Source: Botryllus schlosseri (Eukaryota). Taken from it: a stretch of 64,000 nt of DNA. The stretch spans positions 5,086,001 through 5,150,000 of the forward strand of contig CM119372.1 in the NCBI GenBank assembly GCA_051294905.1. Direction: 5' to 3'. Of this stretch, positions 22,726 through 61,100 are shown in pieces. A program made the position numbers and the translations under genes. The first letter of the stretch is position 1, and the number at the start of each line of letters is the position of its first letter. Under the pieces are notes generated by a model that did not search any database, was not told the DNA's origin, and was given only the letters and a program-made list of their open reading frames with translations.

Positions 22726-23901
22726 CAGAACGCGAACGTGAACCTCACGTTCACACCATCCCTAGTTTTCTTTACTTGCTACCGATGTTACCTTTACCCC
22801 ATTAAAAAGTTATACAGCAGTAGCCAACACCGCAACCACACGGATTTGGTTTCATGATACAATAAACATGCGAAATCAAGATCAACCCCGTACGCTTGCT
22901 AGATTTTTACATCACATACAACGATATCAATTTCATTGATTGGTTGAATATAAACATCATTCGCTGACTACCTATACATGTAGTGTATTTCGCTCTTGAT
23001 ATTGTGTGATTGCGGGCCAAACTCACAGCACAGAGTCAATAAATATTCCAGCAAACGTTATCATAACAAAGCAAGTAAAATCCTTGAGATTGCCGAGGGG
23101 CATGCTCGTTCAGTGGTATTTTTTTTATGCCGCCAGAGCCGTGCATATAGCACTATAGTGGCCCGCAGTTCAAATCCAATAAATTTCAACCAAAGATGTT
23201 ATAATGAAGTGAAAATTGTAATCTATGAAAAAGGTTCACCGTGCAGAACCTACCAAGGTTGTGAACGTAAACCTCTAAATTTCTGAGGTTCACAGACAGA
23301 ACGCGAACGTGAACCTCACGTTCACACCATCCCTAGTTTTCTTTACTTGCTACCGATGTTACCTTTACCCCATTAAAAAGTTATACAGCAGTAGCCAACA
23401 CCGCAACCACACGGATTTGGTTTCATGATACAATAAACATGCGAAATCAAGATCAACCCCGTACGCTTGCTAGATTTTTACATCACATACAACGATATCA
23501 ATTTCATTGATTGGTTGAATATAAACATCATTCGCTGACTACCTATACATGTAGTGTATTTCGCTCTTGATATTGTGTGATTGCGGGCCAAACTCACAGC
23601 ACAGAGTCAATAAATATTCCAGCAAACGTTATCATAACAAAGCAAGTAAAATCCTTGAGATTGCCGAGGGGCATGCTCGTTCAGTGGTATTTTTTTTATG
23701 CCGCCAGAGCCGTGCATATAGCACTATAGTGGCCCGCAGTTCAAATCCAATAAATTTCAACCAAAGATGTTATAATGAAGTGAAAATTGTAATCTATGAA
23801 AAAGGTTCACCGTGCAGAACCTACCAAGGTTGTGAACGTAAACCTCTAAATTTCTGAGGTTCACAGACAGAACGCGAACGTGAACCTCACGTTCACACCA
23901 T
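22726..23901. repeat. 571-bp direct tandem duplication made of the terminal part of the TAGGGATGGTGTGAAC MITE
   Basis: 22726-23330 is repeated at 23297-23901; ORFs 22996 and 23567 have identical translations and a 571-bp offset. It is homologous, inverted, to 28587-29110. Confidence 0.9.
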
Positions 23902-32100: not shown

Positions 32101-35100
32101 GTGAGAACTAGCAGTAATAAATATTCCGTAATATAGTCTTGAAACCGTAATTATCGTTGATTCAAGTATTACTCTTATTGGAACGAGGCACATAATTTCA
32201 GTCGTTGAAAAAACCCTCTCTCAATACTCGACCTGACTCATTAGGCCCTGCAATTAATACTCTATAGGGATTCGAGTATACGCGAATCATTTTGCCACAT
32301 ACTTGTAATTATAGCAACTGTGTCATTCAGATTAGATTGTGCATTCCAAGCATTATTTTCCGAATATTTATGGGTGCCGTCTAGGATGCCGCTGGCGGAG
32401 CGAACGACTCATACTTTAACGTAACGATCTCGGAAATACAAATTGGGCGTCCAAATACCATATTCGTAACGCCGACCAACCCTGAGGGTCAAAGGGGCGT
32501 GAAGTATGCTCATGAATTCACTATACCAGGTTTCAGTTATTCTTTTATTATTGATTTACTCACTTCATTCTGTGAAAGCCTCACATGATTTCGAACTAAC
32601 GCGGTAAGAAGTCCATCCCCACACCTGGAAATATAATGCAATACCGGTAAACTCAAACCCCTGCGAACGATAATGTTGTCGTTCCGTATCTACAGAGATA
32701 AACGCATGTCGAGATCCATATCGGTATTGCCATTGGTTCGCCGATTGCGTGGATCACGCGGGTGATGACAAAACAGTGGCAGCATGTAGGTGCAAACCGG
32801 GGTATGATGGCAATGGCGTCAATTCCTCATTCAGTACGGGCGACGGATGTACAGATTTCGACGCCTGCATAGCCCTTGAGGTAGCCGTATGCGATGATAA
32901 TGCCAAATGTGTGGACAATCCTCCCCCGTCAAAGACAGCAATGTGTGTTTGCGGGTATGATGGTGCGTCTGCCACATGTAGATAAGAACATAAGTGATCA
33001 TATACGTTCATTATAGGTCAGGATTTTTTGGTGATGGCAAAAGAAAAGGATCTGGTTGTAGGAAAATTTCGTCGATTGTCCTTCCGGCGTTGGGTGTACC
33101 TATGGGTCTACTTTCACTGTTTACTATTTACTGCTGTGTGAAAAGACTGCGACACATAAAGACCGGGTATGGTATAAGTGTGAACTTTTAAGCAGCTGGA
33201 AAGTACAGTAATCCCTGTAACCAAGACTTACATATATTGTGACAAGTTAAGAATTACTAATGCTGAAATATTTGAAGACGAAAAAAGTTTTCAAAATTCT
33301 TTGCATCGACGGGTACGAGGTACACTTGCCCCCTGGAATATGACGTACAAAATCAGAGCAATACTGCTGGAGTCTTTGGAGCTACGTACGAGCTTCGTCG
33401 AGATGCGATTGAACGAAAAGGTATTCATGAATAGCTTGTGTGATATGCGTGATATAAAGACTCTTCGTTTATTGCAGGAGTTTTAGGTCGCGGAAATTTC
33501 GGAGTCGTGTACAACGGTGCACTAAAGACAGAACGCGGGACCGTACCAGTTGCAATCAAAACTATGGCAGGTCGGCCGCACTTTCTTCATTTGCAGTATA
33601 CGTACACTACGTAAAGCATCGCTAACAACCAATTTATAAGTCCTTACATCAAATTATATTACGAACACAATGAGAAAACCCATAATCTGATTGGCAGAAT
33701 AATTAGGCTCGTGTGGACACCCACACTCGCATTCACTGAAAAGGTGCAAACCTTGATTTTAGTCGCCGAGATCTCGTATATATGTATTATTAGGTATGAA
33801 ATCGCGCCATACGAAATATGAGAACAGTTTCCTAATATGATAGGTCAGTAGATGTCATGCAAGAGCCATTTTATTGTCTCGTTTATAGGTCTGCAGCTGC
33901 ACTCTGCACTCTGCATGCTTGATTGTAGCTGCAACTATGGAGTATGACATTATAGATAGGCTAACCTCCGTAGGTTAGCTATATATAATGACATACTCTG
34001 TACTGCAACTGTCTCAATCTCGCCGAAGAAATTGTAGACCACATTCGAATCGTGGACTCAATACTGCTGAACTAATCAATTTAGCAACCTAATGACTGTC
34101 ACTGAGTTTCGGGGCTGCAAATTACATGACTATACCCTCTTCATTAGGCAGCTAATAGTTTTGCCAGGTTATACATAATTACAATACTCATAAATTGGTG
34201 ATTTACCGCCTCGGGATGTAAAAGTATATGGTCTAAAATAGAAATTCAGTGTTGAAAGCAGTGATTGCGTCATTGATGACTGGCAAGATGCCGTTTTAAT
34301 TAGTAGCGGAACGACTGAAACTTGCTACGCCAAAAAGTTTCACTGCCGCGTTACAGAATAAATCAACGTCAAACAGGATTCGGATCGAATGCGAAAATGC
34401 GACAGAGCAGCTTAATCCTATCTCATTTGCGTATGCTTACATTGTGGTGAGAAACGTGACGTATAGGTGTTATTTTAAGGAGACACAAACTTGATCTATC
34501 GATACCACCCGAAGATGACACTGGAACTATAGCCTCTTTTAACCTGCCATACGTTTGCAATCATTGAACATGAGATTGGTATGTGAGTTGCTGATATAAA
34601 AATTCATTGTGTGTTATGAAAATGCAATCAGAAGGACCGTGTCATCGTTCCCTAATTATGTGACCTCGAGTTTCTTGTCGCTGCAGACCAAAATTGTTTT
34701 CGGAATGTGGAATGATGAATATTGTATGTCAATTTGATAAAGTTGTCGGACGGTGTGGATGCGTTTATTAACATGCTGCCGACGTGATTTTCCCATAATG
34801 TTGATGATTTCCAAAGAAGTTCTCGGTTCCTAGCAAGTTTCCTTTTTTCTGACTCAAGATTAAGGAGGTTCGCATGCCAAACACTGACGCAAACTTATAC
34901 TTATAGGTCTCGGCATCCATGTAGCCAAACGTACCCTTCATCCGAGCGTACTCATCAATAACAACAACAGTAGTAACACATCTGGTTCACGTATGTATAT
35001 ACACGAGCAGATAATAGCGCGCACGGCTACGTAAAGGGAATCAGGGATTAATATCAAATAGTATATAGTTCGTCGATACGTTGACGGACTCGTTAATCGT

Positions 35101-37295
35101 ACGTCAGCCCGAATAAGACATCCGTTAGTTTACGTCATAGTAACGCTGCATAGAGCCGCTACGACGCAATGATAGTCGCGGCCAGACCATAAGAACAGAT
35201 TGAAGGAAACGAATGTGGAAACGCAGGGATCGATATTGTGCACAGCCGTAAAGCGGTTAGATAATATTTGCATTCATGTGTGCTTACTTTAGAACCGCGT
35301 AACCGCGAGACCGAAATGGAATTTTTGGCAGAGATCGCCCTGATCATAAGTATAGGACAACACGAAAGTGTACTGGGTCTCATCGGATGCTGTACTTCTG
35401 GTCCTAATCCTCCATTTCTCGTCACGCAGTATATGAAGTACGGTGATTTACTTCACTTCCTGTGGGACTGTCGAGAGGTTGGTACTGCAGACATTGTTTT
35501 CGCGCGCAAAAAATCAAATTTTTCAACAATTGCCCATTGAAATTAAGGAAAGCAACAGAGCTCGCCAACAAATTTACATATTCACGGAAGGGAATATTTA
35601 CTATATCGCGATGCAAGTTGCGAGCGGTCTTGAGTACGTTACTGGATTGAGGATCATTCACGGCGACATCGCAGCTAGAAACATCCTCGTAGATCAGGTG
35701 ACTTGATTCACGCGATCTCCCAACTATATGCCTACACTATACAGCGGGGTTTCTCAAACTTTTTTAAACTACTCAACCTTACTTCCTGAAAATAATGTTG
35801 CCTTCATAATAAGTAGATCATACTGGCTCTGTTAGCACTAATCAGAGATCTACAGTAGGCTAGGTTGTAACTTTCATTACTGCGGCAATTGAGTAGTGCG
35901 GAGCATGGACCGGAGCCGGATTGGATATCCGGCCGGAATTTTTCAGTTTTGGCCGGTGCCGGATCGGAGCTGAATCAGTCATTTTTCTGATACGGCCGGA
36001 TCCGGATCAGTACATTTTCTTGACACGGCTAGAATCTTTATTGATGAGCATGACTTTTGTAACTGAATAACTATCAACCAACCAATCACACGCAAGTGAC
36101 CGCCAAGCCAGTGCGGAAATAAACGTGCCATATTGATAAATTCACGGTACCACCGTACCGTGTAGGGCGGAGCATGGGCCAGAGCCGGATTGGATATCCG
36201 GCCGGGCTTGTTCAGTTTCAGCCAGAGCCGCATCAGTACTTTTCCTGATACGGCCGGAGCCTGATCGGAGTCGGACCAGAGAATTTGTCGATCCGCTCCG
36301 CACTACAATAGAGACACATATATTCACTACAGTTAATGTGTATGAGGCGAAGAACGTTACACGGCAATGTAAAAGTATGGTGGTTTAAGCCTTAATTAAC
36401 ACTGCAATTGGTAAGCTTAAACATTATGTGAAAGCATGGTGGTTAAAGACTCAATAAACTCTGCATTTATTCGGAAAGCTTAAATGTTTTTCTCGAATTT
36501 CAGCCAACCGGCAAAGTCGCTGCTGCTGAAAATTTTCACAGCACCAGTAAAATTAACGTACTAGCGCACCCCCGAAAGCTCTCCCACATACCCAGCTTTA
36601 GAAACACTGCTATACAGGAATAAGAAGACTATTACAAATCTCTCATGGTGCAGGGACTGAAGTGCAAGATATCTGACTTTGGATTGGCGAATGACGTATA
36701 CAGGTACGGGATGGTAAAAAACGCCAGAGAGAAGAAAGTGCCAATGAGATGGACTAGCCCTGAACGGATGCAAGCCGGCATGGTACCCATCACATGGCGC
36801 AGCGACGTGTATGACACAAACATAACTGATGATGCAATGAATCCATAACGCAGAATTCTTGGTTATTTTAGATGGTCTTTTGGTATATTATTATACGAGA
36901 TGACCACGCTTGGAGCGAATCCGTTTTCTGAAATACCGATTCATAACTTGTTTGAAAAGCTTTCGTCTGGATACAGAATGGAGAGACCATCGTCCTGCAG
37001 TCCGTTCTTGTGAGTAAAATGCATATATTACTCCAATGAACAGTGTCAGACAAATACAATGCTATGAGGCATGGTCCTATTGAAGCATCTGATGACCTCA
37101 AGTCCCTTTAATAGGTCTTGGACACTAGGTCGTTAATCGACGGTTTGCTTCCACAGGTACGACATAATGACAAAATGCTGGGATTGGGTCCCCTCGAAAA
37201 GACCAACATTCAAAGAACTCAGGCAAATTATGCAAAATGCTAAAACGTACACAGGAGAGAATTACGAAGACATCATTTCGCCAGTTGTTACTTGA
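26146..37295 (+). CDS. STYK1: Receptor tyrosine kinase of STYK1/NOK type with signal peptide, FN3-like region(s), 2 EGF-like domains, TM helix and kinase; 16 exons, ~804 aa
   Basis: Exons: 26146-26221 (MMYIALLLILSNDIVNG signal peptide), 26289-26411, 28484-28565, 29579-29759, 30696-30906, 30963-31147, 32385-32529, 32696-32954 (EGF x2), 33017-33166 (TM IVLPALGVPMGLLSLFTIYCCV-KRLR), 33278-33420, 33478-33570 (LGRGNFG..VAIK), 35293-35477, 35548-35697 (HGDIAARN), 36654-36808 (DFG..WTSPER), 36872-37009 (DVWSFGILLYEM), 37157-37295 (CW...RPTF, TGA). Lengths sum to 2415 nt in one open frame. Kinase, EGF and TM exons are high confidence; N-terminal exons are moderate. Confidence 0.85.
26863..26915. repeat. 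(AAC)n microsatellite
   Basis: caacaacaacaacaacaataacaacaacaac; a shorter one lies at ~50559-50579. Confidence 0.85.
27120..28219. mobile_element. Non-autonomous hAT with a nested element at ~27262-27550
   Basis: Ends caggggtggggcaaact/agtttgcccatccctg; TSD gtggaggg/gtgtaggg (7/8). Inner element cagtggttctcaaact..agtttgagaacccctg. Confidence 0.8.
28587..29522. mobile_element. hAT-type MITE (TIR TAGGGATGGTGTGAAC), full length
   Basis: 16-bp TIRs, perfect TSD tgttgtcg, and gttcac/gtgaac subterminal repeats. Confidence 0.92.
31306..31868. mobile_element. MITE with tttaaaaca repeats (cagggttg..caacccta)
   Basis: Inverted ends agggttgtgtttaaaac/gttttaaatgcaaccct; TSD degenerate. Confidence 0.65.
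35745..36609. mobile_element. Non-autonomous hAT with nested MITE 35894-36305 (TIR TAGTGCGGAGC)
   Basis: Outer TSD ctatacag is perfect; inner TSD caattgag/caatagag; internal ccgga repeats. Confidence 0.82.
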
Positions 37296-37959: not shown

Positions 37960-39075
37960 TGTTTGAACAATAACTCATACGACGAGGTTGCAATATGAAA
38001 TCAGTATCTTATCAGTAGAATAACTTAAAGGGAGCGACACGATCCAGAGTACAGATAAACGAAAGACCAGCAGACAACAGAACACAGGGTATAAATACGA
38101 AGCACGACACACGAGGAAATAATGATTGACGTTAATTACTAATCCTCGACAAATAAGAGACAACGATACCAACGTAAAATGCACGAACATAACAGTCCTC
38201 CCCAGTAAGTTAGGAGTACAAGGCAATTTACGTTGGCCGATAGGAATCAGTTTGTTTTCTAATTCTAAGCGGATAACGTTTGCCCGACGTTCGAGCAGGA
38301 CTAGCTGCAGGACGTTGTGCCCTATGCCTGCTGACCAATGGTTGCTCATGCTCAGCTTGTGATTGCTGAGGCTGAGCAAATTCCTGTGTGACTATATCCC
38401 TAGCAATGGAAATCAAGCGTGGCTGGAGTTGGTTTTTATGCCTTATCCAATACCCATGATCTGTTTTGACAATGTACAACACGCGTCCCAGTATTTCCGT
38501 CACAACGCCAGCAACCTGTTTTGGTCCGCGTCGGTAACTGCGAGCGTAAACCGACAAACCAATCTCGAAATGAGTGATTGATTGTCTAGGAGTAACGGGT
38601 TTCGAATTTTCGATATATCGTAAGGCGAGCTCAAACGTAACAAATTGCGCGGCTGCCGACCATGCAAAATCTCAGCAGGCGTTTTCCAGTCTATGCCCGG
38701 GTGCGGTGCACATCGGTACGTAGCGAGAAGTGTTTGGAGCGCGAAGTTGAAATCTTTTCCCTCGTCGCAATTTTTTATCATTCTAGCTTTTAAAGTCTGG
38801 ACGAAACGCTCCGCTTTCCCGTTCGAGGCAGGGTGAAAACTGAAAAGACGGTGATACGATATGGCTGATTGCCAAATTCGAAAAAGACGTATCGAATTCA
38901 TTCGATGTGAATTGCGGTCCATCATCCGTGACAATTGTTACGGGCAAGCCTTCGATAGAAAAGACTTCCCTCAAAGCGTTGACTACACACAAGGTTGTGG
39001 TAGATCCGACATTCATCACTTTAACGAAAGGATATTTCGAATGCGCATCGACGATGACAAGAAACATTCTGAGCT
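37960..39075 (-). pseudogene. Ty3/Gypsy retrotransposon 3' fragment: frameshifted integrase, PPT and 3' LTR
   Basis: Three frameshifted segments: FLVIVDAHSKYP..VTDDGPQFTS, HPASNGKAERFVQTLK..TPAEILHGR, and VYAR..G.V...LG...Y.V....RHKNQL. The purine tract ggggaggac (38203-38195) is followed by a TG..CA LTR-like segment 38194-37960. Confidence 0.85.
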
Positions 39076-39145
39076 GAGCTACCGAAAGCAGCGAAACATA
39101 AAATAAACTGCCCATTTTAAGGCGCAGTATATGATTTCTGTAGTG

Positions 39146-40869
39146 CAGGGGTGGGCAATTATTTTTCCCCGCGGGCCAAATGAGAAGCAGAAAATATGTT
39201 GGCGGGCCGAGTCAGAAATTTTAGCTGTATTCTAAAGCGTATGGATTTATTTCTAAATTGAAAGCAATGATTTACACATACACTAAATGGTGCTCAGTGG
39301 ATGTGTTGATATTGGGGAATGAGAAAGAGACGGTTTATTACCAAAAAAAATATTTGTTTTCCGTCATATTTTGAAACAATGTTACGCATGATACTTCTTG
39401 ACTGTCTTTAAACCCATATCCGCGTTTTTCTATTAATACATTAAAATGTATTTGGGATGGCCGAAACAGCCCGTCGTCAGCCCCCCCCCCCAAACGTTGG
39501 TCTCCCCCCATAGAGTTATAATCCAAACTCCTGGGGCTTTGCCCCCAGACCAGACCCCATCGGCCGGGATGCACACTTCTCAGCGAGATTTCTAGTATAC
39601 ACTATACAGGTGGCAACGTTTTATGCCCTAATAGCGCGAAGCGCTAAATTTTTCCATGATTCATGATTCAATCGGTCAATAATATTGGTAATTGCATGTA
39701 TATTGCTATATTTTTTCTAACCTGTCTCAGCCCACGTACTCAGTTTTACTGCTAGAGCTGAGTGAGGAGCTGTCTTGGAAATATTCGGGAGGGCCCGTTG
39801 GTATAATTACTTCGTTACATGTTATTATTTCGTGACCTCCCATCTGCTACGTGAAAGTTATTGAAATCACCAAAGCATACTAAAGTAAAGGACGCACACG
39901 GTTCCCAATTGGTATTTCTTCACTGGAAAATATTGCCTATGGTTTTCGGTCAACATAAGGGCAGTCCTTTTGGCCGAGGTTTTCTCTCTGTCGAGCTTTT
40001 TTCCCTTTACTTAGTTAATTTGATTAGCAGTTAAAATTGCAGTGCCTTATCGGAATCCGTGTTGGCCTAAACTTCATATATCTTGGCGTGTCGTGGCTCG
40101 GTAATGGCTGACACAGAAATGCCCAATTTTATAATCCATTGATCTCTAAATCGCGGCTATAGCGCGAGAAAAATTTGAAAGAAGTTGCATAAATTAAAAA
40201 ATAAGATACTCTATAATTTATGTTCATTCACGAAATAATTTTGGACTCCCTTCGGGCTCGCCCCCCAATTGGGGGTTTGGGGTGCGGCAGATACGTTTCA
40301 GGGGATACTATAAAGCTTATTGTCTTGGTAGCTGGTTTCCGAGAAGTGTGCAGCTTGCCGAAATGGCCTTGTTGTTGAGCCAAGCTTGCAGTTATTCTGA
40401 AATTCGCCGCCCCTTGAGCGAGTGTATGTCTTCCTGTTTTTGTCATAGAACCGACTTAAATTATACTCCTATAACTATGATATACTCATTACTCATAGAA
40501 ATCACGGGCACTGATTAACTTGTTTTACGAATTATGGATTTGGAGACGCATCACGAAACAATTTGAAACACAGACCGTGTAAGTAATGCGTAATGTGACA
40601 ATGGTAAAAATGGCAAGAAGGTTTGGCCATTCCGTGTGACTTTAATTGTAGCGGCATAATTTGCTACATTGACTTTACTTTGAATCTAAATTACGCATGT
40701 GAGGTATTGCGTAATCGCGGCATGTTAATGAACAGGCTTGATAGTAAACGAATTTCCGGCTCCGTTTATTCTTCCTATGGTTTATACATCCACGCAACAA
40801 CATTAAAATGTAGGTTTTATATTTTCAATTTCAAGCAACCTTTCGCGGGCCGCACTTTGCCCAGGCCTG
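39146..40869. mobile_element. Nested non-autonomous hAT (caggggtgggcaa..ttgcccaggcctg)
   Basis: TIRs, gcgggcc subterminal motifs and perfect TSD ctgtagtg. Confidence 0.87.
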
Positions 40870-42340: not shown

Positions 42341-45300
42341 TACGCGAGACGAGCTAGCGGAACGAATGTGGATCATATAACCATCACCATCGCGCTGTTT
42401 GAGTCAGAAGGCGCAAGGCAATTGCTCCAATTTATGTTTACGACTCAAAATCATCCGTTTGAGGAAGTGCGGCGTTTCATACGTCACCTCTCCGTTTGTC
42501 AGAAGTCCCACCTGGTCATTAGGAGCAATCTATTTTCGCGGTGGAATTGATAGCTGTCGAACTACCCATCAAGTTGATATCTGGATTTCCAGAAATTCCA
42601 GTTCATCGGAAAAGTTACTGATTATGACCGACTGCTCGAGTTCTTGAATTTGCATTCGCAATTCGATTTCACAACCCACTGGCGGATTAGTTGATAGAAT
42701 TGTACCGAGAATTCTCCAGGTATAAAGTTGCTAATCTATAATCGCTAAACATACTTGTTGAATGAAGGCGAATATGAATACACTGAGATAACGCATCTGT
42801 GCTATTGTTACTTCAATTTTCTTTTGTATAATCGTGCAAGGAGAATTTAGGCAATGTTTGCTCGACTATGTAACGAAATTCCGGTCTTCCGATTACGTAA
42901 CACTCGATCCCATCCATGTGATGTCACATGACACGCTGTTTGGATTTACTGATGACTTGAGCGTAAAGCGTCGCTCCAATTCGACAGGAAGGAGCAAGTC
43001 AAAGAGAAAGGGGTAGTCGCGCGTTACGTGAGTGCATCGTGCCGTAGTACACATTTCCTGTTCTCGAGTCTGACAAATGCAAACACCTTCACCTTCACAC
43101 TCGTCTGTTGATAAGACCAGGAGAAACTCCTTGTTTGCCGCAATCCAAATGGACCTTAGGCCTGCCGAAAACGGTACGAAGAGGGAGAAATGCAGCATGT
43201 ATACCGCCCCACTATAGTGAAATCAATGGAAAGCGTATGTCGGCCGATGGATACATCACACTACCAAGTGTTTGTAAACGAGGATTGAATCAATTAAAAC
43301 TAACCCCAGTTGCCGAAGTAGGAATTGTAGGGAATTATCATAATCCGATAAAATTTAGGTAACACTTAAATATATGTCGCGATAAAGTCACCTTCAAGTC
43401 GTATGTCATATCTAGTCACTGTAAATTTTGATGTTCGTCAATTCAAGTCATTTCAAAATTGTTCAACTAAATTGACTCTGGTCATCGCAACACCGCTTGG
43501 TAGTGTGTTCGAATGCTAGAGGTACCAAACTTGTAAAATTGAAAATGCCGCCGAAGAACTGATGGAGCGACTTAATGTAAAAGTCAACATGTCTGAAATT
43601 GTGCACCTCAGAATATATAATATAATCACGGGACTGGCGTTTCACGCAATTGTGTGGATAAATTAATTCCAATTTTCATTTGTGATTTATAGCGATTCCT
43701 TAACTGTAATAAATTTTACGCCGCTCCTCACCACGCAGTCCACGGGAAACATTTTCATCGATTTTCATCCATTTTCATCAATCTATCTATGGTATTCATG
43801 TGGCCAATGACTTTGACAAGTCCAGAGGACAAGGATGTGTGGGTTTTAGGCAGGTTGGCATGTAGGTGGAATCCTTCATAGGGATAAGAACAAAGGAACA
43901 GTTACAAAATAATAACTACATCCGAATTTTTTCCCCGCTAGATGTTTAACATTACTGGCCATAACTATACACGAACTAAAGTTACGAGAGAATTCGCGGG
44001 TGCGTGATTCTCAAAGGAATGTATAATATCGTTACATCGCATTCGATGCTAGCATATCTGTGAACAATTAAATTACGCTTCTCATACATGGGCAGCCCTA
44101 TTGGGTCTCAAATTTACATCAGTAAACGCAAATTTTAAAGTTACATTGCATTCTATTCATGAACGAATTTCCTTGCACCGTAGCACCGAGAATTTCTGAG
44201 AATTGGTGAGAACCGCAGGTAACCTTGATGCCTTGTTGAAGTTCATATGGTCACTGCATGTCGACTTGAGAATGTAAATTGTGCAAATTGGTGACAATTG
44301 GGATTGACCGCAATAACAATTTACCTCATCAATTTGAATCGATTCATGTTCATTGATACCGCCTCGCAACATAAATATCTCGTTAATACAACAGCGTCCT
44401 TCCCAGCAGTATGTTTTATGCCAGCATGATACCTCTCCGGAAACTAGAAGCAATGATATTTGTGTGATTATATTTAGTTTTATTACACGGAAATCGAGTG
44501 CACTTTGAATGGAGCAACTATATCTAGTTAACACATAGCACGGTACATGAAGCACCTATCTACTCATAATTAATACCACTGGAAATTGTTATGAATCTCC
44601 ATGTGTCAGAGCACATTGCACATTGATATTGGTCATTCCGATATAGTAACGCATAAAGATTTATTCGGATATCGTTAATATGCCCCAGGTTATCACCCTA
44701 TTTAATACCCCTGTAAATTGAACGTCCATTGATAATAATTTATTAACCTTCATGCATTCAAAAAGGACCCTTACGGAGACACACCCGTATAAATTTATCA
44801 GGGTAACGAATACGGTTAGTCAATAGTGATAATGCCAACATCATGAGCACGTGAGGTCGTTAACCTCGTTAACAGAATGATGTCGGACGAGTCACGTATA
44901 TGGATTTGATACAGAACAATGTAAATTCCACATATTTCCTTATCTCATTGATGATAATAATCCTCGTAAATTTCATTCATTTTCACGCCAGAAAATATTT
45001 ACACCAACATGGATTAATTCTACTACATTTTACATGTGACTACCAGGAGCCAATTAAGTTCAAGAAAAGAGTCATACACGAGCCTAGCATTATAGTGTTT
45101 GCAACACAATACGTGACATCAAATCCGTAGGAAACAAAAAAGGATTTTTGACAGATTTGCTAACGGTATCATCAGAAAACAGGTCAATGTCCTGATTGTC
45201 GAGACTCTTAGCTTGTCAGTTGGACGCATTCCCATTAGCATAATTTGTTTGCGTTGTCTATTTTTACGCGGCAATGATTTATCTCGAGTATAATCTATCA

Positions 45301-45353
45301 CTATTTAGCGATAAAAGCGTTTGCTTTTGACCCGCCTCCACATAGCGGTTTCC

Positions 45354-45361
45354 TATATAAG
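45354..45361 (+). promoter_or_regulatory. TATA box of the peptide precursor gene
   Basis: TATATAAG at 45354-45361, an Inr-like TTCATATT ~30 nt downstream (45383-45390), and the ATG ~45 nt after that. Confidence 0.6.
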
Positions 45362-45427
45362 CTCCCAACACACCCTTCGGCATTCATATTGTGAAACCGA
45401 CGACGCCAAGAGACGGATTTGAAAAGA

Positions 45428-45808
45428 ATGAAGATCAAAATGCAGATACCGATTATATGTTTATTAGTCCTATCATTGTGTGCAGTCACGCCATGCTCAA
45501 GTGCTCCACTCAGGGGATATGATAGTGACTTAGACGAGAAAATTGCTTCCGACAGCGCATACGACAACTCCAACGACGAATCTTTAAAGTTAGATGCACA
45601 AGCTATGTTTCATGACGAAGGAGGCACTAGGACAATCAAATCAAATCGACCGATCCACGATGATACGAACGGCTCAGTGCTACGAAGTAGACGTGACATT
45701 TCAGACATAGCATTCCACGGAGCCCGTAAACGACGACATCACAAGCGTTCCGCCAAGTACCTTCTCGCTCAAATTTTGAAGAGCATTACTGGAAAAAAGC
45801 TCGGATAG
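45428..45808 (+). CDS. Secreted peptide-hormone precursor (126 aa) with a C-terminal PTH/PACAP-like (class B1 GPCR ligand-like) amidated peptide
   Basis: ATG at 45428; hydrophobic signal peptide (IPIICLLVLSLCAVTPCSS); acidic pro-region; furin site RSRR; then DISDIAFHGARKRRHHKRSAKYLLAQILKSIT followed by the G-KK amidation/cleavage signal. TATATAAG lies upstream and ATTAAA at 46063. Confidence 0.85.
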   Translation: MKIKMQIPIICLLVLSLCAVTPCSSAPLRGYDSDLDEKIASDSAYDNSNDESLKLDAQAMFHDEGGTRTIKSNRPIHDDTNGSVLRSRRDISDIAFHGARKRRHHKRSAKYLLAQILKSITGKKLG

Positions 45809-47926
45809 TTCCAACATGTCAAAATAACAAGTAGCAGGGTATCAGACTTAGTCTATGCAATCGTATATGCACAATCTTGTATAACGAACCCCTTCGTGGG
45901 TTTGAGATTCTTTGTCATTTTCAACGCGCGTTGATTCAATTGCGAGAATTTTCCATGAATGCACCGACGACTCTTGCCGACATTTGTTGACAGCTGAATA
46001 TTATCTATTTATCATTATCATCTTTGTATTTATCTTCACTGTCTAAATTTTCTGTTGGTTATATTAAAAAAGCATCTTATTATTATATATCTATTTGTGT
46101 AGCTGTGTTTAAAATCGACCCTATATTGCGATGTCCATATTCACCGCAAAGGCTTTATACCTGCAAGGGGACTGTTTTCGAATAAACTCGAAACGTGAAA
46201 TCAAAAAGTTGTGGCGTTACTGCGAGGTAAAGCAGTGGTTGTCGAACTGTGAGAGCTTTTTAGATGGTATGCAAAGAGTGCTGTGGGTAATGTCATACCT
46301 CAGATCGGCGAGCTTTTGCGTAAGAAACAGTTGGAATAATCTCATTAAATGGTGTTTTCTTAATATCCACTGGTGTTGCGATCTAGTACTAACAGAAATA
46401 ACCAATAAACACCGGTACGTTCAAAATACCATAAGTAATTCAGGCGGCACACCATGTAGTGAGAACAAGCTATACAGCTACGCCGTGTGGTGAAAAATGA
46501 ATTAATGGTACGCGATGGGAAAAAATTTGAGAAACTATGAGGTAAACTAAAGGGTTTACTTGAACCTTAAAATTTACACGCAACCCTTTATTGTTTGGGA
46601 CTGACACGCAGTGGTGGCTTTTGGGGTGGGCGAGGTGGGCGTTCACCCGCCCCCTCTTTGGTTCAATCGCTTTTTTCAAGGATTATAGCGAATAAACGTG
46701 GAAATCCGTGTACCAACAAAGAAGATGATTCCTTACATATGGGTCAATCATCATGAAATCTCTGGATTCGTTAGAAAATTCTCATATCTCGATAATCACA
46801 GCGTCTCTGCATGCGGCAGAGTTACTTAGTTTTGATGTAGTCTATTCCTGCAAACATGCAATAATAGATCTGGCCTAATCCAGCGCCTGGCTCAAACCTT
46901 GACGTGGTGTGCTGGCTTATTACAAATGTCAGCCGATATCTTTCCAGATTAGATATTCAGTCTATATATCCTGCAGAAGTTGTATCGCTATTATATTATT
47001 TCACGCTACATGTCATACATCTTCTACACGAAGACATGTACTATAGACAATGTATGGTAAAAGACGGCTCTGGAGCTAGAGCAATTCCCCATTTAATCCT
47101 GCTTCAAAGATGTGCTATAGTTTCACACACACACTACGTAATTCCGTTCCATATGGCGCACTAGTATTAAGTTGGTAATAATGGAAGCGAAAGGGGGGTC
47201 TGGGGCCGGAGGCGCCAGAAGTCGCGATTACATACTTATAGGCTCCCCCGGTAAGTCTCGCCAAGCCCCCCCCAACCGGAGCGCCACCACTACTGGCACG
47301 CATGCCAACTGCATCGCTTAATGTGGGCCTAGGATTGTTAGCGTAGGGATTTGTGTGTGGTGTAAGGATCATGTACGTCAGGGGTATCAAAGATACGGCC
47401 AGCGAAGCAATGTTGAGTAATAAAAAAAGTCCTTGTAAGTCGAGGCATTTAATAAGGAATAGGCAGCTTACACTTGAATAATCTCTCAAGATAGCAAACG
47501 TCGAACATGTTCATTGGTAACAAGCCAAGTTATAACCGTCCGACCATTATGCCCATAGTAACAAGTCATAGTGACATCGAAACGAAATTTTGAGAAGGTG
47601 AAACAGTTTACACTCAGTAAATAGTTTTCGAGAAAAATGGACATGTATGGAAATGTATATATTTACAGAGCCGAAAACTCCAAGGCTAAAACAGCTAAAA
47701 TATGTGGTGACACTGCTATATAGCCTATGACTCAAAGGCCCAGGCCTTACAGAGTCATTTGGACTACTCTATCCACCAAATATTAGGGTTTTTCAAAATT
47801 TTCAAACCCAGAATTCCGGAGAAAAATCTCGAGAAAATGGTAAATTTTTATCACTACGTGGACCATATTGGAGGTATGGTGATCAATATTTCATGCTGTT
47901 ACGGCGATGAGCAAAGGCGTCATAAG

Positions 47927-52143: not shown

Positions 52144-55100
52144 ATGAAGTGGAGGTTAGTAAATAATTTGTGTTTTTGAAAATGTGAAATATATATCTAA
52201 ACTTGTCTCTTTTGTCCAGGGCGTTTATGATTTTACTTCAATCACTTATGTGGCATTTTGGAGATTCTCAGAACGGTAGAGTTGCAGTACAACAACGCGC
52301 GTAAACAGGATGATAACGATCCATGTATCCATATTCCAGATTGCACTGATATAAGTCCGAGAGTTTGCCAATCAATCAAGACATTTTGTGACCATCCACA
52401 ATACAAGGGGTACGCAAGGCGGAATTGCCCCGTCACATGCAAACAGTGTCCAGAAGGTAGTCTTCGTTGTTCTATGAAAGTAGCCTAATATATTCATAAC
52501 TATATAACGTGCTATGTTGCCAGACTTGGACCCGAACGGACTCTGTAAAGGCGACACCGTTTGTGACCAAGAGTGTAATGTCAAAGATAAAACGACTAAG
52601 TATTGCTCTTGCTATCGAGGGTACGAATTAGTTGGGACCGGAGAATGTCGCGGTAAGTTCATTAAAAGATCGCGTATCAGCTGGATACGTTATGTCATAT
52701 CAATGTTAACATTTCATCTATCATTACATACATCATAGTAGGCGATAATAGTATGGTGATTACATATTGATAGCTGAGGCATGTGTATATAGCTTCTTCG
52801 AAATATGGAAATGATAGACGGATAGCTCTCAATAACGCGTATAGGCACGCGGTTTGTTTCCATGGCTGCGTTTTCTGTATATTTCTGAATTTGTGATTGG
52901 GAGATTTTCACCGTGTTTGCAAATCTCTTGTTTTCGTGGGTAGCTGAATAATATGTGATGCGAACACTAAATATCGACTTTGGAACAAGTTTTGATTTGT
53001 GATAATTAAAGTTCCAAATCTTTGTTTTGAGTTGGATACTTTGTCCTATTCACACTGTGGGTTAATTTTGATATTTTAAAAGTATCTGAAACAGAACGGC
53101 TTTATACCTCAGCACCCTATAAATATTCGCAACAAAATCGTGATTGAGTCAGTCCGATCTTGTATAGTTAACCACTGCTGGCCCATGGACCGAGTGATTC
53201 CAGAGTCCGAAAGGGTCAGGCCAACGGCAGAGCGTAACTGTCCGACTCGAGAGTGAGAGGCATTATCTCAAACACATTCTTATTTTTTCTAAATCAATAG
53301 ACCAGGGGTGGGCAACTTCTCCGGTCGGCGGGCCTGATATGGGAAAATTAAGTACTTAGCGGGCCGGATTAATGGATACATATCCCTTATTTATCCACCC
53401 ATACAAGGAATAAATCGTATTTAATGTAAACTCTAAGTTGAAAGCATCGAGACCAAAAACGATATTTAATAAATTTATTAACCTAATGTACTTGAATAGC
53501 TGTTGAAGTCAATCTGACATCTATGGTCGATCAAAGTTGTCAACAAGTTATTTGAACTCTGGCTGCATGTTGGATGTACAAACTCTTAGTAAAGACTGCA
53601 TGTGAACATCCTTTATATTGGAACGCAGCCTTGTTGTGTTAATGTTCGTGGTCAAAAACATTTGCCCACAAATGTATGTAGACCAGAACAGAACAAATAG
53701 TTTCAAGACCATCTTTCTCAGGTTGGCAAACTTGGATTCATTCTGTGACCCATAGAATTTGTCATTACTTTCAGATTAGAATTTTAATTTCAGGGTAGAA
53801 ACTCTCTGCGGGCAGCTTAAAATCCCGTCATGGTCCGGAACCGGCCCGCGGGCCGTATGTTGCCCGCCCCTGCAATAGACGGTAGGCTACTAACACAAAC
53901 ACATCCATCTGCGAGACCAGTCAAACTTCCGACTGCTACGACATATCGATAGCTGGACAATGACTAGGCGTGTATTTTGCAATTTTGACATTGTGGATGC
54001 CGCATTGATTTTTCGCATTGGCGTTTTTAGGGAAATTTGCAGCCAGCAATACTGCGAAGTACAATTACGAAAATGCACCGCATATTTGTATCGGCAATCG
54101 GGTGAAAATCCACTTTCCGCGTCATTATATTCTGAGCAATCTATACCATTGATGAGCAAACGTCTAAAATGAAGCTTTTGAAGGCTTTAACCAAGAAATT
54201 TACATGAAAAACAATGAATGACTTTGCGACTTGCAACTTGCACGCTGTGCTAAGAACGAATGGTTTTTGATCGATGCTACTATAACAGCGATACAATTTG
54301 ATAAACAAATTATCTCCCATGTTGTACGCCAGAGGTATTCGGGGAATTTCACTGAGGTAGACTGCACCTTCCACTTGTAAGTTATAACGCAAATTTAACG
54401 ATCACGTACAGCTGGGAATATGCGATGGATATAATTAATCACGCATGAGAAGCAGCTGCGGCCCGCAGACCGATTCCACCCTAAAAGAGAAATTCTAACC
54501 TGAAACATGGCCAAATTGTTTGTGCGACTGAATGAATCCAAATTTGCCAACCTGAGAAGGATGAACTTGAAACTACTTGTTCTGATCGGGTCTACATACA
54601 TTCTCGAGCAAATATTGTCGATCATGAACATTGACAACACAAAGCTGCGTCCCAATCTAACTGATATCTACGTGCAGTATTTACTAAGGGTTTCTACGTC
54701 CGGCACGGAGTCGGCGTTAAAAGAATTTGCAGGCAAACAGTTGTCTCATTGACTTCAACAGTTGTTGCGGTATTCATAGTGTTTGTCGACTACTATAGTC
54801 ATTTACACCGGGCCGATGTTCTTCATTTTTTCCGTAACTGCCGACTCAGAGCATGGCCCACTTCTAGGCTTTTTGTAGGACACCGCTTACGCGGATGAGG
54901 TGAAGGAGGAGCCTAGATAAACCTCCAATACTTAGGTATAGGAATTCTGAAGTCGACCTCGGTCGAACTCGAACCAGCACCCATTGGTGTTGCAGCCGCG
55001 GATTATACCACTGCGCTATCTCGCGACACAAGTACGTTGCGTTAAATATTCATTAAATACTATTTTTGGTCTCGATGCTTTAAACTTTAAGTTCACAATG

Positions 55101-58100
55101 AATGCGATTTGTTCCTTGTATAGGTGGATAAATAGGCTACGCGATTTATATATCGATTCAGGGATCCGGCCCGCCAACTACTTCATTTTCCCATATCCGG
55201 CCCGCCGACTGGAAAATTTGCCCGCCCCTATTTTAGAATATATCGGCTGCTGCAAGTAGCCTACATCCGTATATTACAAAACAAACAGAAAATTAGCGTT
55301 TAATTTCCGAAAACCCACAATAATACATTTAGTATGCTTTGAACTTGCAATGGTTATTTTAGATGTCGACGAATGCAAACTGCCTATACCGGCATGTAGT
55401 ACAGAGAAATTTTGCGTCAACGCGCCGGGAGGCTTCGTATGTGAAAGCGTGCAGTGTAAAGAAGACCCCACCGCAATACCATACATGGGCCGACCAGAAT
55501 GCTGCAGGAAAGAGCCCGGTAAGTAGATTTTCCGGTTAAATCGATTCACCGATTCGATGTATGTAAATTTCGAACGCCGTCTTTCGATTTGGAGTCATAA
55601 TTTCACATCGCTGCTTATCTCGCCAGCTAATGCCCCTTGCGGAATAATTCGAGCAAAACCGGAGCGACGAATTGTTGGAGGAAATGACTCTTACGCCGGA
55701 CAGTGGCCGTGGCAGGTGGGTAAATTTGGTCGTGAAATGTTATGAATTGCACAAATATTTTTTCTTAATTTTCCGTAAAGATATTGATGTACACCAACCG
55801 AGCTGTAATTTGCGGAGGAACATTGCTCAGCAACAATTGGGTTCTAACGGCAGCCCATTGTTTCAGGTTGGTCCATATTTCATTTCGACAGGCCTATGCG
55901 TATAATTGTCTTATTGTCTTGATGCTGCAGTGATCATTTGTCGAATACGGTGGTGGAATTGCACACCGGGGTCCTCGAATTGGATCAGTTGCATTTGGCA
56001 CGAGTTCAGACCAGAAAACCGAAGAGGGTAAGTTAATCCCTTCTATTTTGGTTTGTTTGGCATTGTAATGTCAACACGAAATTCCAGCCAAAAATATCGG
56101 TTCCACAGTATTTCATAAATGATAGAGTGATGTCATCCGATGATACAACGTCCAGGTTATTCAATTGGCATCTTGGTTGCATGAGGGGATGATTGGTGCA
56201 ACGAATACGAAGTCATTTCGTACCATGATTCAAAGGCCCATTATATAGTTCAGATTGTCGAACAACTTCACGCGGACTTTACATCACAAATGTAGTAAAA
56301 TCTGTGACATGATATTGCGAATGGCAGTAAGGTACGAATGAGATCTTAAAATATACCATAACAAAGTGTAGGTCAGCGGTTCTTAACCTTATTTCCTACA
56401 GCGCCCCTTTTCGAGAATTATCTAGGTCTGGCGCCCGCCCCCCATATTTTAAGGACGGTAGTAAAAAACAAGGGTTTGAAGTAATGTCGATCTATTCGGC
56501 TAGGGACTTCACTATTGGGAATAGCTTGAAACGCGATCGAGGACCGCCTAATATAGGCCTAATAATTGTATAATGTACATGCTATATTCGGGATCACATC
56601 AAGGTTAGTATAACCAGAGGTGGCCAAAGTATTCGACAAAGCTACTCAAGTAGAAGCAGAAGTAGCGACGAAAAAATCTACTCAAGTACGAGTAGAAGTA
56701 CTTCTTAAATAAGTCACCTAAAACTACTTGAAGTAGTAGAATTGACTGACTTTAAATCTACTCAAGTAAGTAAGTAGTTTTGAAAACAGTCTTAATTCGT
56801 TCTCATGGACTGTCAAAAGCTGCAAATTTAGCCATGCGGAAGGTGCAGAGAGTTTGATTTGTATTGATGCATTCCAGGACGTATCAATTTTCGACAGAAT
56901 AAGCATTCTTTTGCATCATGGGATGCAAATTATAGTCTTGATATGGAAATGCGATACTAACCCTTTGTTTACTAGAAGACCCCGTTTTAGAGAATATCAT
57001 GGCATGGCGCCCTACCGCATATTATAAAGCCCCAAGTTTCGGCGGATACGGATTCAACAATTTGCGCGATTAGTATACGTTAATAACAAATATTGTAGAT
57101 CGTTAAAGTTATATTTAGTGTAGTTTTATTTTCGGAAAATAGAGGCATTGCTACGCTTGTTTTTATGCTTCAACATGTATGTTCTGCAGACAAAAGAACT
57201 GAAAGTAAATAGAACTCAAAGTATGATACTCGGAATATAAGTGAAATACAAATACCACTTGTTAAAAGCGGAAAATGTATTTCATGTCTTTTGTCCATAA
57301 AGCTTCAGAGGTGATCTGCTAAAATAGGTGTAACGCTAAAAAACGCCGGATTTTCTAGATTAGCAGGACCCGTCATGGGCTGCTAGATTACGAAATGGTA
57401 AGTAATTGCTAGATTGCGAAAGGGTAATTTCAAACGTTATGGTAGGCCATATTTACTGTGATGAAATATTTGACATGGGCGACAATGCGGTGTGAGCGGA
57501 ACCAAGCAATCCGGTACCTAAATTATATTCACTAATACTTTCGTGAAAATATATTTGTCGCTCCATAACTACTGTGCGCGAAGCGCAACAATATTTCTGG
57601 GCTTTAATCGACTTTTATGAATATTAAATGTTGGTATTCCGTGAAAACAGCCCCGAAATTCCTCAGGCTATCTTTCGTATTGGAGAATTAAACTACTTCA
57701 ACTTGACAAACTGAAAATAGCGAAAATTAAGTAAGTAGATCACAAAATACTACGAAGTAGAAGTAGAGAAAATCAGATCTACTTGAGTAAGTACCAGAAG
57801 TAGAGGAAAACTACTTGAGTACTTCCAAAAAGTAGAAGTACTTCGTTACTGACCACCTCTGAGTATAACAACCATCGGGTACGAACTCATAACATCTGGC
57901 TCGAGTCCGGTTTACACATCCCGAATTCACCTCTGCGATTGGCAATACGGGGACGTTAATTGTATTGGGGTTTGTTTCATTGCTTTCTGTGACCAGTAAA
58001 TCAACTTGGATAGTGGTAGAGATCTTGGCTCACATTGAATTTAGTACTGCTGCACCCAGTTATTAACTTTAACATGAATGTATTCCAAACAAAGCAACCC

Positions 58101-61100
58101 ATTTCATACAACATTCATGTCAGGTGGCGGGTCATATGACGAGACAGTATCATCCTTTGTGATACCATGAATAAATATTCTGAAGATATAAATCACTTTC
58201 AAAAGTGGTACAATGCCGCTTTCTTTAATTTCGAGATGCTGTGAGCTGCAGGTTAAAATACCTAGGCCTATAGTTCGAAACATATTGAGGAAAATAACCC
58301 GAGCTAGCGTCGCGGAACTGTTCAACGGAGAATTAGCGATCTAAAGGTACGCGCAATTCATTTTACATGAATTTTAATAAACCACTACATTCATGGAAAC
58401 AAGTTGCAATCATTGTCGGATGTCGGTGTATATTTCGCGCCCAGCGCGATGAAAAATCTCGAGTTTTGACAGATTATGTCGAATGTTAATTTTCAATGAG
58501 AACTCAGGGACATATAGAACTGTTGTTCTTATATAATCATATTTCCTTACTTCACCCTCTACTGCGCAGCCGTTTTTCGTCATCGACCCCATGCCGCCCC
58601 ACTGAGCCCAGCGCTCCCCATATCGCCCCTGAGCGTTTCCGCCCCTTCAAAATCTAAATCGCCCGTCGGGGGCGACGAGGTGAAGAAGCACTGGTGTAGG
58701 ACATGTAAGGACCAGTCCATTTATTTTCAGTTCATCACATATCCCGGATGGGACAAGAACAAGTTTCAAATCAATGATATCGCTCTGGTAGAGTTAGATA
58801 CACCGGTAACTTTCAATGACTATACAAGGCCTGTGTGTTTACCAAATGGAGAAAAAGTCAAAACTGGAACAACGTGTTTCGCTGCTGGTTGGGGGTTAAC
58901 CGGTACGACAACATTGTTTCAAATGCGATCAAATTATCGTACTACATTACTATATCATTTTTAGATCAAGACGGAGTGCAGCCCTCTACGATTCTGCAGC
59001 ATGTGGCTTTGCCAATTGTCGATCGGGATAAGTGCGAAGAGAGTTACAAAAACAATAGGTTGAAAGTGAATAAGACCATCATGACGTGCGCGGGATACGA
59101 CGAAGGTGGCAGAGACGCTTGCAGAGGTATGCTGTCAACACAAGCGCATCACACTGGAACTCTCCGACAAAAACCATTCACTGATTTGCAGGAGATTCTG
59201 GCGGCCCCTTAGTATGCCAACGTTGTGACAGCTGCAGCTGGTTCATCGCAGGCGTCGTCTCGTTTGGAAGCGGGTGCGCGCAGGCCGGGAAATACGGAGT
59301 GTACACTGATGTAATTTACTATGAAGATTGGATTGCGACCGAAACCGGAATTCACTTATCGAAGGACAACACATGTTCAGGACCACGTAAGTTTAATGGT
59401 TGTTAACTATATGTAGCAGCCTGTGTGAAGCTAAAGCTTGCATTCGCAGAATTTACAAATTGGGGTGAGTGGTCCCAATGCCCAATGACCTGCGGAACCA
59501 AGGGTATTAAGAGGAGAATTAGGCATTGTCTCGACAAGGGTCGAGATAGCACTGCGTGCGTTGGATTATTGAAGGATCAAAAGCAATGTCCCGAAAATCC
59601 ATGTCCAAGTATGGTATTATATGTAACGGCGAGACGGCATCATCATTATTGTCACAACGTGATATTCAGGATTCAGCTCTTGGACCGATTGGACGCCCTG
59701 CTCAAAGAAGTGTGGCTCGGGATTTCAAAGTAGAGTAAGAGAATGTGTTCACGGAGAGCTTGGAGTCAAGGAGTGCCCAGTATCAGGATCTTCGCAGCGT
59801 AGAGTAAGTTGATAGCAGCACTCGACTTGATGCAATGCTTTGCCGCAACGCTCACAGAACAATTATCGCCGGGATTTTGTTCAGAGATGCAATACAATAC
59901 CATGTGCAAAATGGGGAAATTGGAACATCTGGGACCAGTGCTCGCAAACTTGTGATGGCGGAAAGAGGAAGCGATCGCGTAGCTGCATGAATACGTCACC
60001 AGATCAGCAATGCGTTGGCAAGTCCGAAGAGGAGGAATCCTGCAATACTGCAGATTGTCCACGTAAGGCTTCCGTATATTTTCCTAACATAAGGATATAT
60101 AAATACGGTTTTATTGGGTAACAGATTGGTCGAAGTGGTCAAATGAGGGTCCATGCTCAAAAACATGCGGTGGGGGCATGCAACGTCAGGGTAGGAGTTG
60201 CATTGGTGGTGACTCGTGCACAGGAGCTGGTCAACGCAATCAGGTAGTGATTTTGTTATGTCATATGGTAAAGTATAGCTGGATGTTATTGTAAACGTTC
60301 CACAGCAATGCAACCAGCAGCCATGCCCGGTGTTTGGTAAATGGGGTGGTTGGGGGCCATGCGATGTCACATGCGCCGGCGGAACCCAGCAACGAACCAG
60401 AGACTGTGAAAATGGCAAGCTTGGCGAAGTTGGATGCGCAAAAGGCGACGAATCGGAAGCTAGGGTAAGTTGTTTAATTGAAGGAAAATTCACCCGAAGT
60501 TTGCAGCTAACTTCTTATCTTATGCTAGGCATGCAACACGGAAAAATGTCCTAGATTTACAAATTGGGGCCCATGGGGAAAATGTTCAAAAACGTGCGGC
60601 TCGGGTAGCCAAGAATCAACAAGAACATGCCAGCACGGTAAAGTTGGTCAAGCTGGGTGCATAGGAACTGTGTCCAGAACAAGAACTTGCTCCACTAACG
60701 AATGCATTGGTATGTATGTTTTAAAAATACTGTCCTAAGAACATTAATTCAATGCTCATTTCAACCATAGGTAAATACAGCCCTTGGACCCAGTGGTCAC
60801 CGTGCTCCAACACTTGCGGTAGTGGTAAGAGGACAAGAAGTCGTACATGTGAAGGCGGTACCCGGTGCGTTGGAAAAAGCAGCCAGCAGGGAGACTGTAA
60901 TGACAGAAAATGCCCAGGTATAATAATACTTACGTTTTACTTCCACGTCCAATAATATACACGACGCGCCGACGTCGATATGGTCGTTTTTGCACTCATC
61001 CAACTCCTTGTTCACCTAAGTATTCAGCGATTGGACTCCATGGGAGCCGTGTACGAAAACATGCGGAGGCGGTTCAAAAACTCGTTCCAGAACGTGTCTG

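Follow-up and report, generated by a model that had tools for sequence, protein, structure and literature searches.

The ascidian Botryllus schlosseri carries a transcribed, intronless gene that codes for a 126-residue prepropeptide (P0001), from which a 32-residue amidated peptide is predicted to be excised. This peptide is a candidate ligand of the ascidian receptors of the parathyroid hormone (PTH) receptor type (PTHR-like), an assignment to which we give a probability of about 0.5. The wider proposal, that it is a ligand of a class B1 G protein-coupled receptor (GPCR) of whatever type, is probably correct.

The gene lies in a window of 64,000 nucleotides (assembly GCA_051294905.1, contig CM119372.1, forward-strand positions 5,086,001 to 5,150,000). 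Its anatomy and coordinates are those given in a preliminary description of this DNA and were confirmed on the sequence (Table 1). The top 11-residue Kyte-Doolittle window of the leader (3.13) is found at residue 9, and beyond residue 14 no window exceeds 1.5. After the Gly-Lys-Lys signal the precursor terminates with Leu-Gly-stop. The internal Arg-Lys-Arg-Arg at peptide residues 11-14 is absent from the preliminary description. Searches of the genome (495.5 Mb, 219 contigs) with the whole protein and with its C-terminal 43 residues each match this locus alone, so that by these searches the gene is present in a single copy. Its layout is found in one of the 81 Met-started ORFs of 60-250 aa across the window, according to a filter designed after inspection of the 45428-45808 ORF. 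The precursor was not found in the protein collections searched.

Table 1. Features of the precursor gene, in window positions
Feature	Position	Strand	Evidence
TATA box (TATATAA)	45354..45360	+	read depth starts at the bin that follows, 45376-45509
Transcribed stretch without splice joints	45376..46179	+	RNA reads; limits are those of 134-base bins
Coding sequence, 126 aa plus stop (P0001)	45428..45808	+	ORF; first ATG within the covered stretch
Signal-peptide-like leader, residues 1 to ~25, cleavage point inferred	45428..45502	+	hydropathy; predicted helix 7-19
Acidic spacer, residues 26-85, predicted unstructured	45503..45682	+	13 Asp/Glu versus 6 Lys/Arg; pLDDT mostly <50
RSRR convertase site (Arg-Tyr-Lys-Arg in P0003)	45683..45694	+	sequence, orthologue alignment
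Predicted mature 32-residue peptide, net charge +6, ~3.73 kDa if amidated	45695..45790	+	same length in P0003
Internal Arg-Lys-Arg-Arg, peptide residues 11-14, possible second cut	45725..45736	+	sequence
Lys-Arg at peptide residues 17-18	45743-45748	+	sequence
Gly-Lys-Lys amidation and cleavage signal	45791..45799 (Gly 45791-45793; Lys-Lys 45794-45799)	+	sequence
ATTAAA, poly(A) use inferred	46063-46068	+	sequence
AATAAA near the end of read depth, poly(A) use inferred	46181..46186	+	sequence, reads

Neighbouring genes are recognisable by their exons on the + strand of the window, at approximate positions: a sugar transporter (12500-14100), an EGF-bearing receptor-type tyrosine kinase (30900-35700) and a series of ShK-like, calcium-binding EGF, trypsin and many TSP1 modules (52200-62600) that possibly belong to one mosaic protease. 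Retroelement integrase pieces are spread over several frames of the - strand at 37975-39211 (Pfam rve, E 1.9e-7, narrowly below the cut-off). Two ORFs with identical translations, 22984-23286 and 23555-23857, lie 571 bases apart; either a tandem duplication took place recently or the repeat comes from the assembly.

Transcription was followed in four of the 24 listed sequencing runs of the same species label, mapped to positions 43500-47500; three are on record as RNA and the fourth (X1) is presumed to be RNA. The bulk RNA runs X18 and X22 cover 45376-46179 with a mean depth of ~14 and 6, respectively, and without joints, while none of the 14 bins between 43500 and 45375 has depth in any of the three runs on record as RNA. 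Coverage by the single-cell run X16 is confined here to 45778-46179, with second mates on the + strand. Provided that the library is of the usual 3'-end type, this agrees with a transcript on the + strand that ends near 46180. Run X1 provided an 807-base contig over 45355-46161 that has no difference from the genome. Expression is low, ~2-7 reads per kb per million records, a rough figure from three runs. The gene is real, unannotated, transcribed and intronless, and the RNA reads that cover the ORF bear out the view of a transcribed prepropeptide of an invertebrate chordate. Short interspersed repeat pieces located downstream (46582-47117) gather reads and contigs from many other loci.

The RNA reads feature four coding differences, all of them non-synonymous. 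Two are inside the peptide (Lys21Gln and Tyr22His), one is in the spacer (Met60Val), and the fourth is a Lys to Arg exchange in the basic pair that keeps the site. The variants at 45755-45760 alter the neighbouring residues 21 and 22 together, and His22 is also the residue of the orthologue. The variant at 45798 turns Lys-Lys into Lys-Arg, so that the signal reads Gly-Lys-Arg in the other allele, while it is Gly-Arg-Lys in the orthologue. The 3' UTR has an allele with a 7-base insertion at 45867.

A phmmer search against 1.84 billion representative proteins gave two matches, P0003 (E 4.8e-4) and P0002. The latter is a bacterial repeat protein whose chance match to the spacer led to its rejection as a homologue. 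P0003 (132 aa, from one Logan contig) is built of a leader, an acidic spacer, Arg-Tyr-Lys-Arg, a 32-residue peptide with an Asp start and an Ile-Thr end, and Gly-Arg-Lys-His-Gly-stop. When P0003 is used as query against the genome, the locus studied here comes out first (E 3.5e-6), the other of two matches having an E value of 4.5. Judged by these sequence searches, P0003 is the reciprocal-best orthologue, and the single one found. A word-index homologue search yielded none among 2 candidates with P0001 as query, and P0003 only among 91 with the P0001/P0003 alignment; metagenome scans led to confirmation of 0 of 583 and 0 of 97 stretches as homologues.

The last 43 residues of P0001 and P0003, comprising the cleavage site, the peptide and the tail, align without a gap and are identical at 15 of 43 positions, with a score of 75 that none of 5000 shuffles reaches (mean -0.3, SD 7.7). 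Besides length and processing signals, the two proteins share Asp1, Asp4, Arg13, His15, Leu24, Ala25, Leu28, Ile31 and Thr32 of the peptide. The expectation that the segment after RSRR would be preferentially conserved fails for identity, which amounts to 9/32 in the peptide, 16/52 in the spacer (with 19 gap columns) and 7/24 in the leader, although these last 43 columns align gap-free. RNA reads, a reciprocal orthologue, and the layout combined with the shuffle test rule out that the ORF is an artefact or a chance occurrence.

Modelling predicts a helical peptide. In the AlphaFold2 model, the isolated peptide is one continuous helix spanning residues 3-32 (mean pLDDT 76, reaching 89 at residues 21-30), and in the whole precursor the sole long helix is at residues 91-121, the spacer being devoid of structure. 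Foldseek searches with the precursor and peptide models gave no matches.

A cationic amidated helix of this kind might instead be a host-defence peptide, antimicrobial or membrane-active, which the acidic pro-piece would neutralise. The composition (net charge +6 in P0001 and +5 in P0003, 3 and 2 His, ~40% hydrophobic residues) and the fast divergence, with 4/4 coding differences non-synonymous, agree with this, and ascidians are known to have cationic defence peptides that are amidated. Conservation of Asp1, Asp4 and exact length, the single gene copy and the low read counts speak against it, and we consider it unlikely.

A ligand of PTHR-like receptors should display features of the PTH family, and these were scored at the seven positions printed in a PTH2R structure paper, PMC8364112 (3, 4, 5, 7, 8, 19 and 23), by a test that is lenient relative to this source, as Val was accepted at position 5 and Leu or Met at 23. 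The cleavage site sets the register of the peptide, which is therefore fixed. Each orthologue has 5/7 features (shuffle p 0.0056 and 0.0051) and both jointly have 4/7 (p 0.0057), p-values that are overstated because the i, i+1, i+4/5, i+8 hydrophobic spacing is common to amphipathic helices, and that come from tests in which several families were tried. Of the seven registers compared, the unshifted one (0) scores highest in both orthologues. If the further hydrophobic positions 24, 28 and 31 of PTH are added, as named in the preliminary description, 8/10 features are present (p ~1e-4, overstated likewise); a literature search for residues of PTH that contact the ectodomain yielded no paper.

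At single positions, the acid required at PTH position 4 is Asp4 in both P0001 and P0003, and the hydrophobic residues are Phe/Met at 7 and Leu/Met at 23, the latter not aromatic, unlike in the vertebrate peptides. Position 3 fails in one orthologue (Ser3 in P0001, Pro3 in P0003), position 19 also in one, and position 8 in both (His/Gln), while it is hydrophobic in PTH, PTHrP and TIP39 (PMC8364112). The PTH-like register that had been put forward stands only in part. Its acid at 4 and its hydrophobic residues at 5, 7, 23, 24, 28 and 31 are kept in both orthologues. The matches claimed at 2, 3, 21 and 22 are lost in P0003, which has Ser2, Pro3, Asn21 and His22, and those at 21 and 22 are moreover polymorphic within the species. 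The PACAP-like "SD..F" start that had also been noticed did not hold either, since it is Pro-Asp..Met in P0003.

Comparison with family profiles was negative. Pfam Parathyroid (PF01279) and Hormone_2 (PF00123), suggested in the preliminary description as a check, match neither the peptide nor the locus, and CRF (PF00473) has no match at the locus; the PF01279 test is insensitive for peptides this divergent, and the Hormone_2 genome search also missed two local secretin-like peptides. Elsewhere in the genome, a weak PF01279 match on contig C16 (stops, repeat-like frame) and a weak PF00473 match on C14 (without precursor layout) were discarded, as was a match of the precursor to Pfam XRCC4_C (E 0.018, 16 bits versus a cut-off of 27). 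PDB peptides gave no sequence match to the precursor peptide; two secretin-like peptides of the same genome, used as control, are also without a PDB peptide match, and such blanks therefore carry little weight. In the ESM Atlas, the whole protein retrieved rows at 0.82-0.87 that include several prohormones (DH31-type, urotensin 2B, osteocrin, NPFF, PDH); all are below 0.9 and of low recognition, a lead only, and the C-terminal part was uninformative.

Gene structure is also distinct. In vertebrate pth genes an intron precedes the cleavage site (PMC4354418); here it is absent, the ORF being continuous and the reads free of joints. As the Pfam match, the hydrophobic residue at position 8 and this intron were looked for and not found, the gene should not yet be filed as a member of the PTH family. 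Synteny lends no support: of three markers that neighbour PTH-family genes in vertebrates, TEAD (C6:0.79 Mb) and a MRPS35-type gene (C6:8.15 Mb) are on another contig, and only one of two FAR-type loci is on C2, the contig of the window, 7 Mb off. A second PTH-like gene may exist on C6, where TEAD and the MRPS35-type gene lie.

Ascidians have clear PTH-type receptors (PMC2396169), and PTHR homologues were described for Ciona (PMC2396169, PMC3483286). The B. schlosseri genome holds such receptors as well: three PTHR-like exon sets are arranged in tandem at C3:9.56-9.72 Mb. Among solved structures, the C3 exon coding for transmembrane segment 3 (TM3) matches PTH2R best (E 3.4e-20), followed by PTH1R (5e-18) and the secretin receptor (3.3e-14), and the ectodomain exon of the same gene has PTH1R as its best match (E 1.3e-13). 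Compared with PTH2R-like proteins, this TM3 exon shows 81% identity in Styela clava and Clavelina lepadiformis and 79% in Ciona, which marks the genome as that of an ascidian. Two of the C3 receptors have divergent TM3 exons, with 63-65% identity to Styela versus 83% for the third. Three PTHR-like receptor genes face one candidate ligand gene found. The main C3 receptor keeps a Tyr in TM1 and an Arg and a Lys in TM2, read by eye as 1.47b, 2.60b and 2.67b; all three residues are common across class B1 and do not point to a particular ligand. Folding of the peptide with a stand-in receptor, the Styela clava PTH2R-like protein P0004 (residues 1-430), gave 0.20 and 0.18 against a mark of 0.34, values that speak neither for nor against binding. 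The genome contains also three B1 receptor genes at C6:5.33-5.66 Mb and a further one on C15. The C6 TM3 exon is nearest to the secretin receptor (E 1e-12) and VPAC1 (1.5e-11) with PTH1R close behind (4.1e-11), and the best matches of this one exon suggest receptors of the secretin/VPAC/glucagon type.

The C6 receptors would be the targets if the peptide belonged to the secretin/PACAP/glucagon side of class B1, as a divergent relative of two precursors that are encoded on the same contig 1.5 Mb downstream. These two (L035:1103-1249 and L039:3876-4256, on C2 ~1.5 Mb beyond the window) have a basic site followed by a secretin/glucagon-like start, and the L035 peptide (27 residues followed by Gly, where an exon stops) ends in Ser-Leu-Thr-Gly, to be compared with Ser-Ile-Thr-Gly in the peptide studied here. 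An acid one residue on from the counterpart of PTH position 4 is moreover common to both families, Asp6 of TIP39 being conserved in glucagon-like peptides (PMC8364112). Against these points, an hhalign comparison with the two local peptides detects nothing (probability 0.2 and 0.7), their genes are spliced while this one is intronless, Hormone_2 does not match, and the C6 receptors already have better-fitting candidate ligands. Members of the secretin/PACAP/glucagon family have His or Tyr at position 1 and Gly after the acid; neither orthologue has either, in register 0 or shifted by one. A place on this side of the class is accordingly judged improbable.

Further cleavage of the 32-mer at the basic sites inside it, with a C-terminal amide of 12-14 residues as the active form at another receptor, is also of low probability. 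Arg-x-Lys/Arg-Arg sites end at residue 14 in P0001 and 20 in P0003, dibasic pairs are at 17-18 and 16-17 (in P0003 the basic sites end at 17 and 20), and identities are densest at residues 24-33, points that favour such a product. The internal sites are, however, at different positions in the two species, while both peptides share the upstream site, Asp1, Asp4 and a length free of gaps. Basic clusters are common inside B1 ligands. PTHrP itself carries Arg at 19 (PMC8364112).

The most doubtful alternative, not raised in the preliminary description, is a CRH/urocortin-type gene whose product would act on a CRHR-type receptor. A single exon codes for CRH-family precursors, also in Ciona, as it does here (PMC7406891), and the peptide stands at the very end of the precursor, followed by Gly-basic. 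Residues 4-11 of P0001 resemble the N-terminal motifs in that paper (shuffle p 0.011), and the genome gave no other CRF-like precursor (one of 3 candidates matched weakly and proved to be no precursor). Against this, the motif p is 0.67 in P0003, the Ser-Leu-Asp motif is lacking, Ala-x-x-Asn near the C-terminus is missing in both orthologues, the peptide has 32 residues versus 38-41 in the mammalian members named in PMC7406891 and PF00473 gives no match. The CRH synteny described in the same source stops short of tunicates.

The reading preferred here, a ligand of the PTHR-like receptors, starts from the observed gene, transcript, processing signals, peptide length and receptors and from the predicted helix, and implies the following course. 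The precursor would enter the secretory pathway and be cleaved at two places, behind RSRR and at the basic pair near the C-terminus. Amidation from the Gly would then yield the 32-residue peptide, whose target would be a GPCR of class B1, the likeliest being one of the three PTHR-like receptors encoded on C3. The hydrophobic face formed by residues 23-31 may dock on the receptor extracellular domain, and Asp4 may pair with Arg2.60b and Tyr1.47b, leading to Gs/cAMP signalling. A contact of the acid with the transmembrane Arg/Tyr pair is described for PTH and TIP39 (PMC8364112). A more tentative extension, which we hold to be less likely than not, is that this ligand of the PTHR-like receptors keeps a form near that of the chordate PTH ancestor, an intronless amidated 32-mer, and, being on one contig with the secretin/glucagon-like precursors 1.5 Mb away, is a possible relic of the local duplication by which PTH-type and secretin-type ligands separated.

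Among invertebrates, ascidians are the nearest relatives of the vertebrates. If the preferred reading is true, the role of PTH signalling becomes testable in an animal that has neither bone nor a parathyroid gland: with an expressed, synthesizable 32-mer, its orthologue and three candidate receptors at hand, the pre-skeletal function of PTH can be addressed directly. No functional test of a tunicate PTH-receptor pair was found in the literature searched, which was mostly non-subscription. The Ciona peptide papers searched do not mention parathyroid hormone, and the supplements of PMC7406891 and PMC8936170 hold no Ciona CRH or PTH sequence.

Among known systems, the peptide compares with several groups of class B1 ligands. 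PTH, PTHrP, TIP39 and PTH4 of vertebrates (PF01279) share with it the acid at 4, hydrophobic residues at 5, 7 and 23, a helical active core of ~32-34 residues and a basic-rich middle. They differ from it by their match to PF01279 and by the pre-cleavage intron, both absent here, by the residue at position 8, polar here, and by a long C-terminal extension, in place of which the ascidian peptide ends at residue 32 with an amidation signal. The amphioxus PACAP/GCG peptides a, b and c (32-33 aa; PMC7251081) are alike in length and in their very low identity to vertebrate peptides, but there are three per precursor as described in that source, while here there is one, without a His/Tyr-type start. 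CRH and urocortin (PF00473; PMC7406891) are alike in the single coding exon, the C-terminal peptide and the Gly-basic end; the peptide studied here is 6-9 residues shorter and is without the Ser-Leu-Asp or Ala-x-x-Asn described in that paper. The insect iPTH/PXXXamide, by its description in PMC7224569, is likewise amidated; it acts on a PTHR-related receptor although it has little identity to vertebrate PTH, and shows that ligands of the PTHR type can be unrecognisable by sequence; the ascidian peptide has no Pro at -4 from the C-terminus, in which it differs from the insect one. A likeness, by description, also exists to the PTH-like peptides of tunicates and amphioxus predicted by Mirabeau and Joly in 2013 (PMC4354418, PMC5640766), which also belong to invertebrate chordates, come from short divergent precursors, have low similarity to vertebrate PTH and come from genomes with PTHR-like receptors, and the gene is possibly orthologous to entries of the published supplement. 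Since tunicate PTH-like peptides were predicted in 2013, the gene is a new member of a kind already predicted, and its value resides in the deorphanisation of the ascidian PTH-type receptors rather than in a new kind of system.
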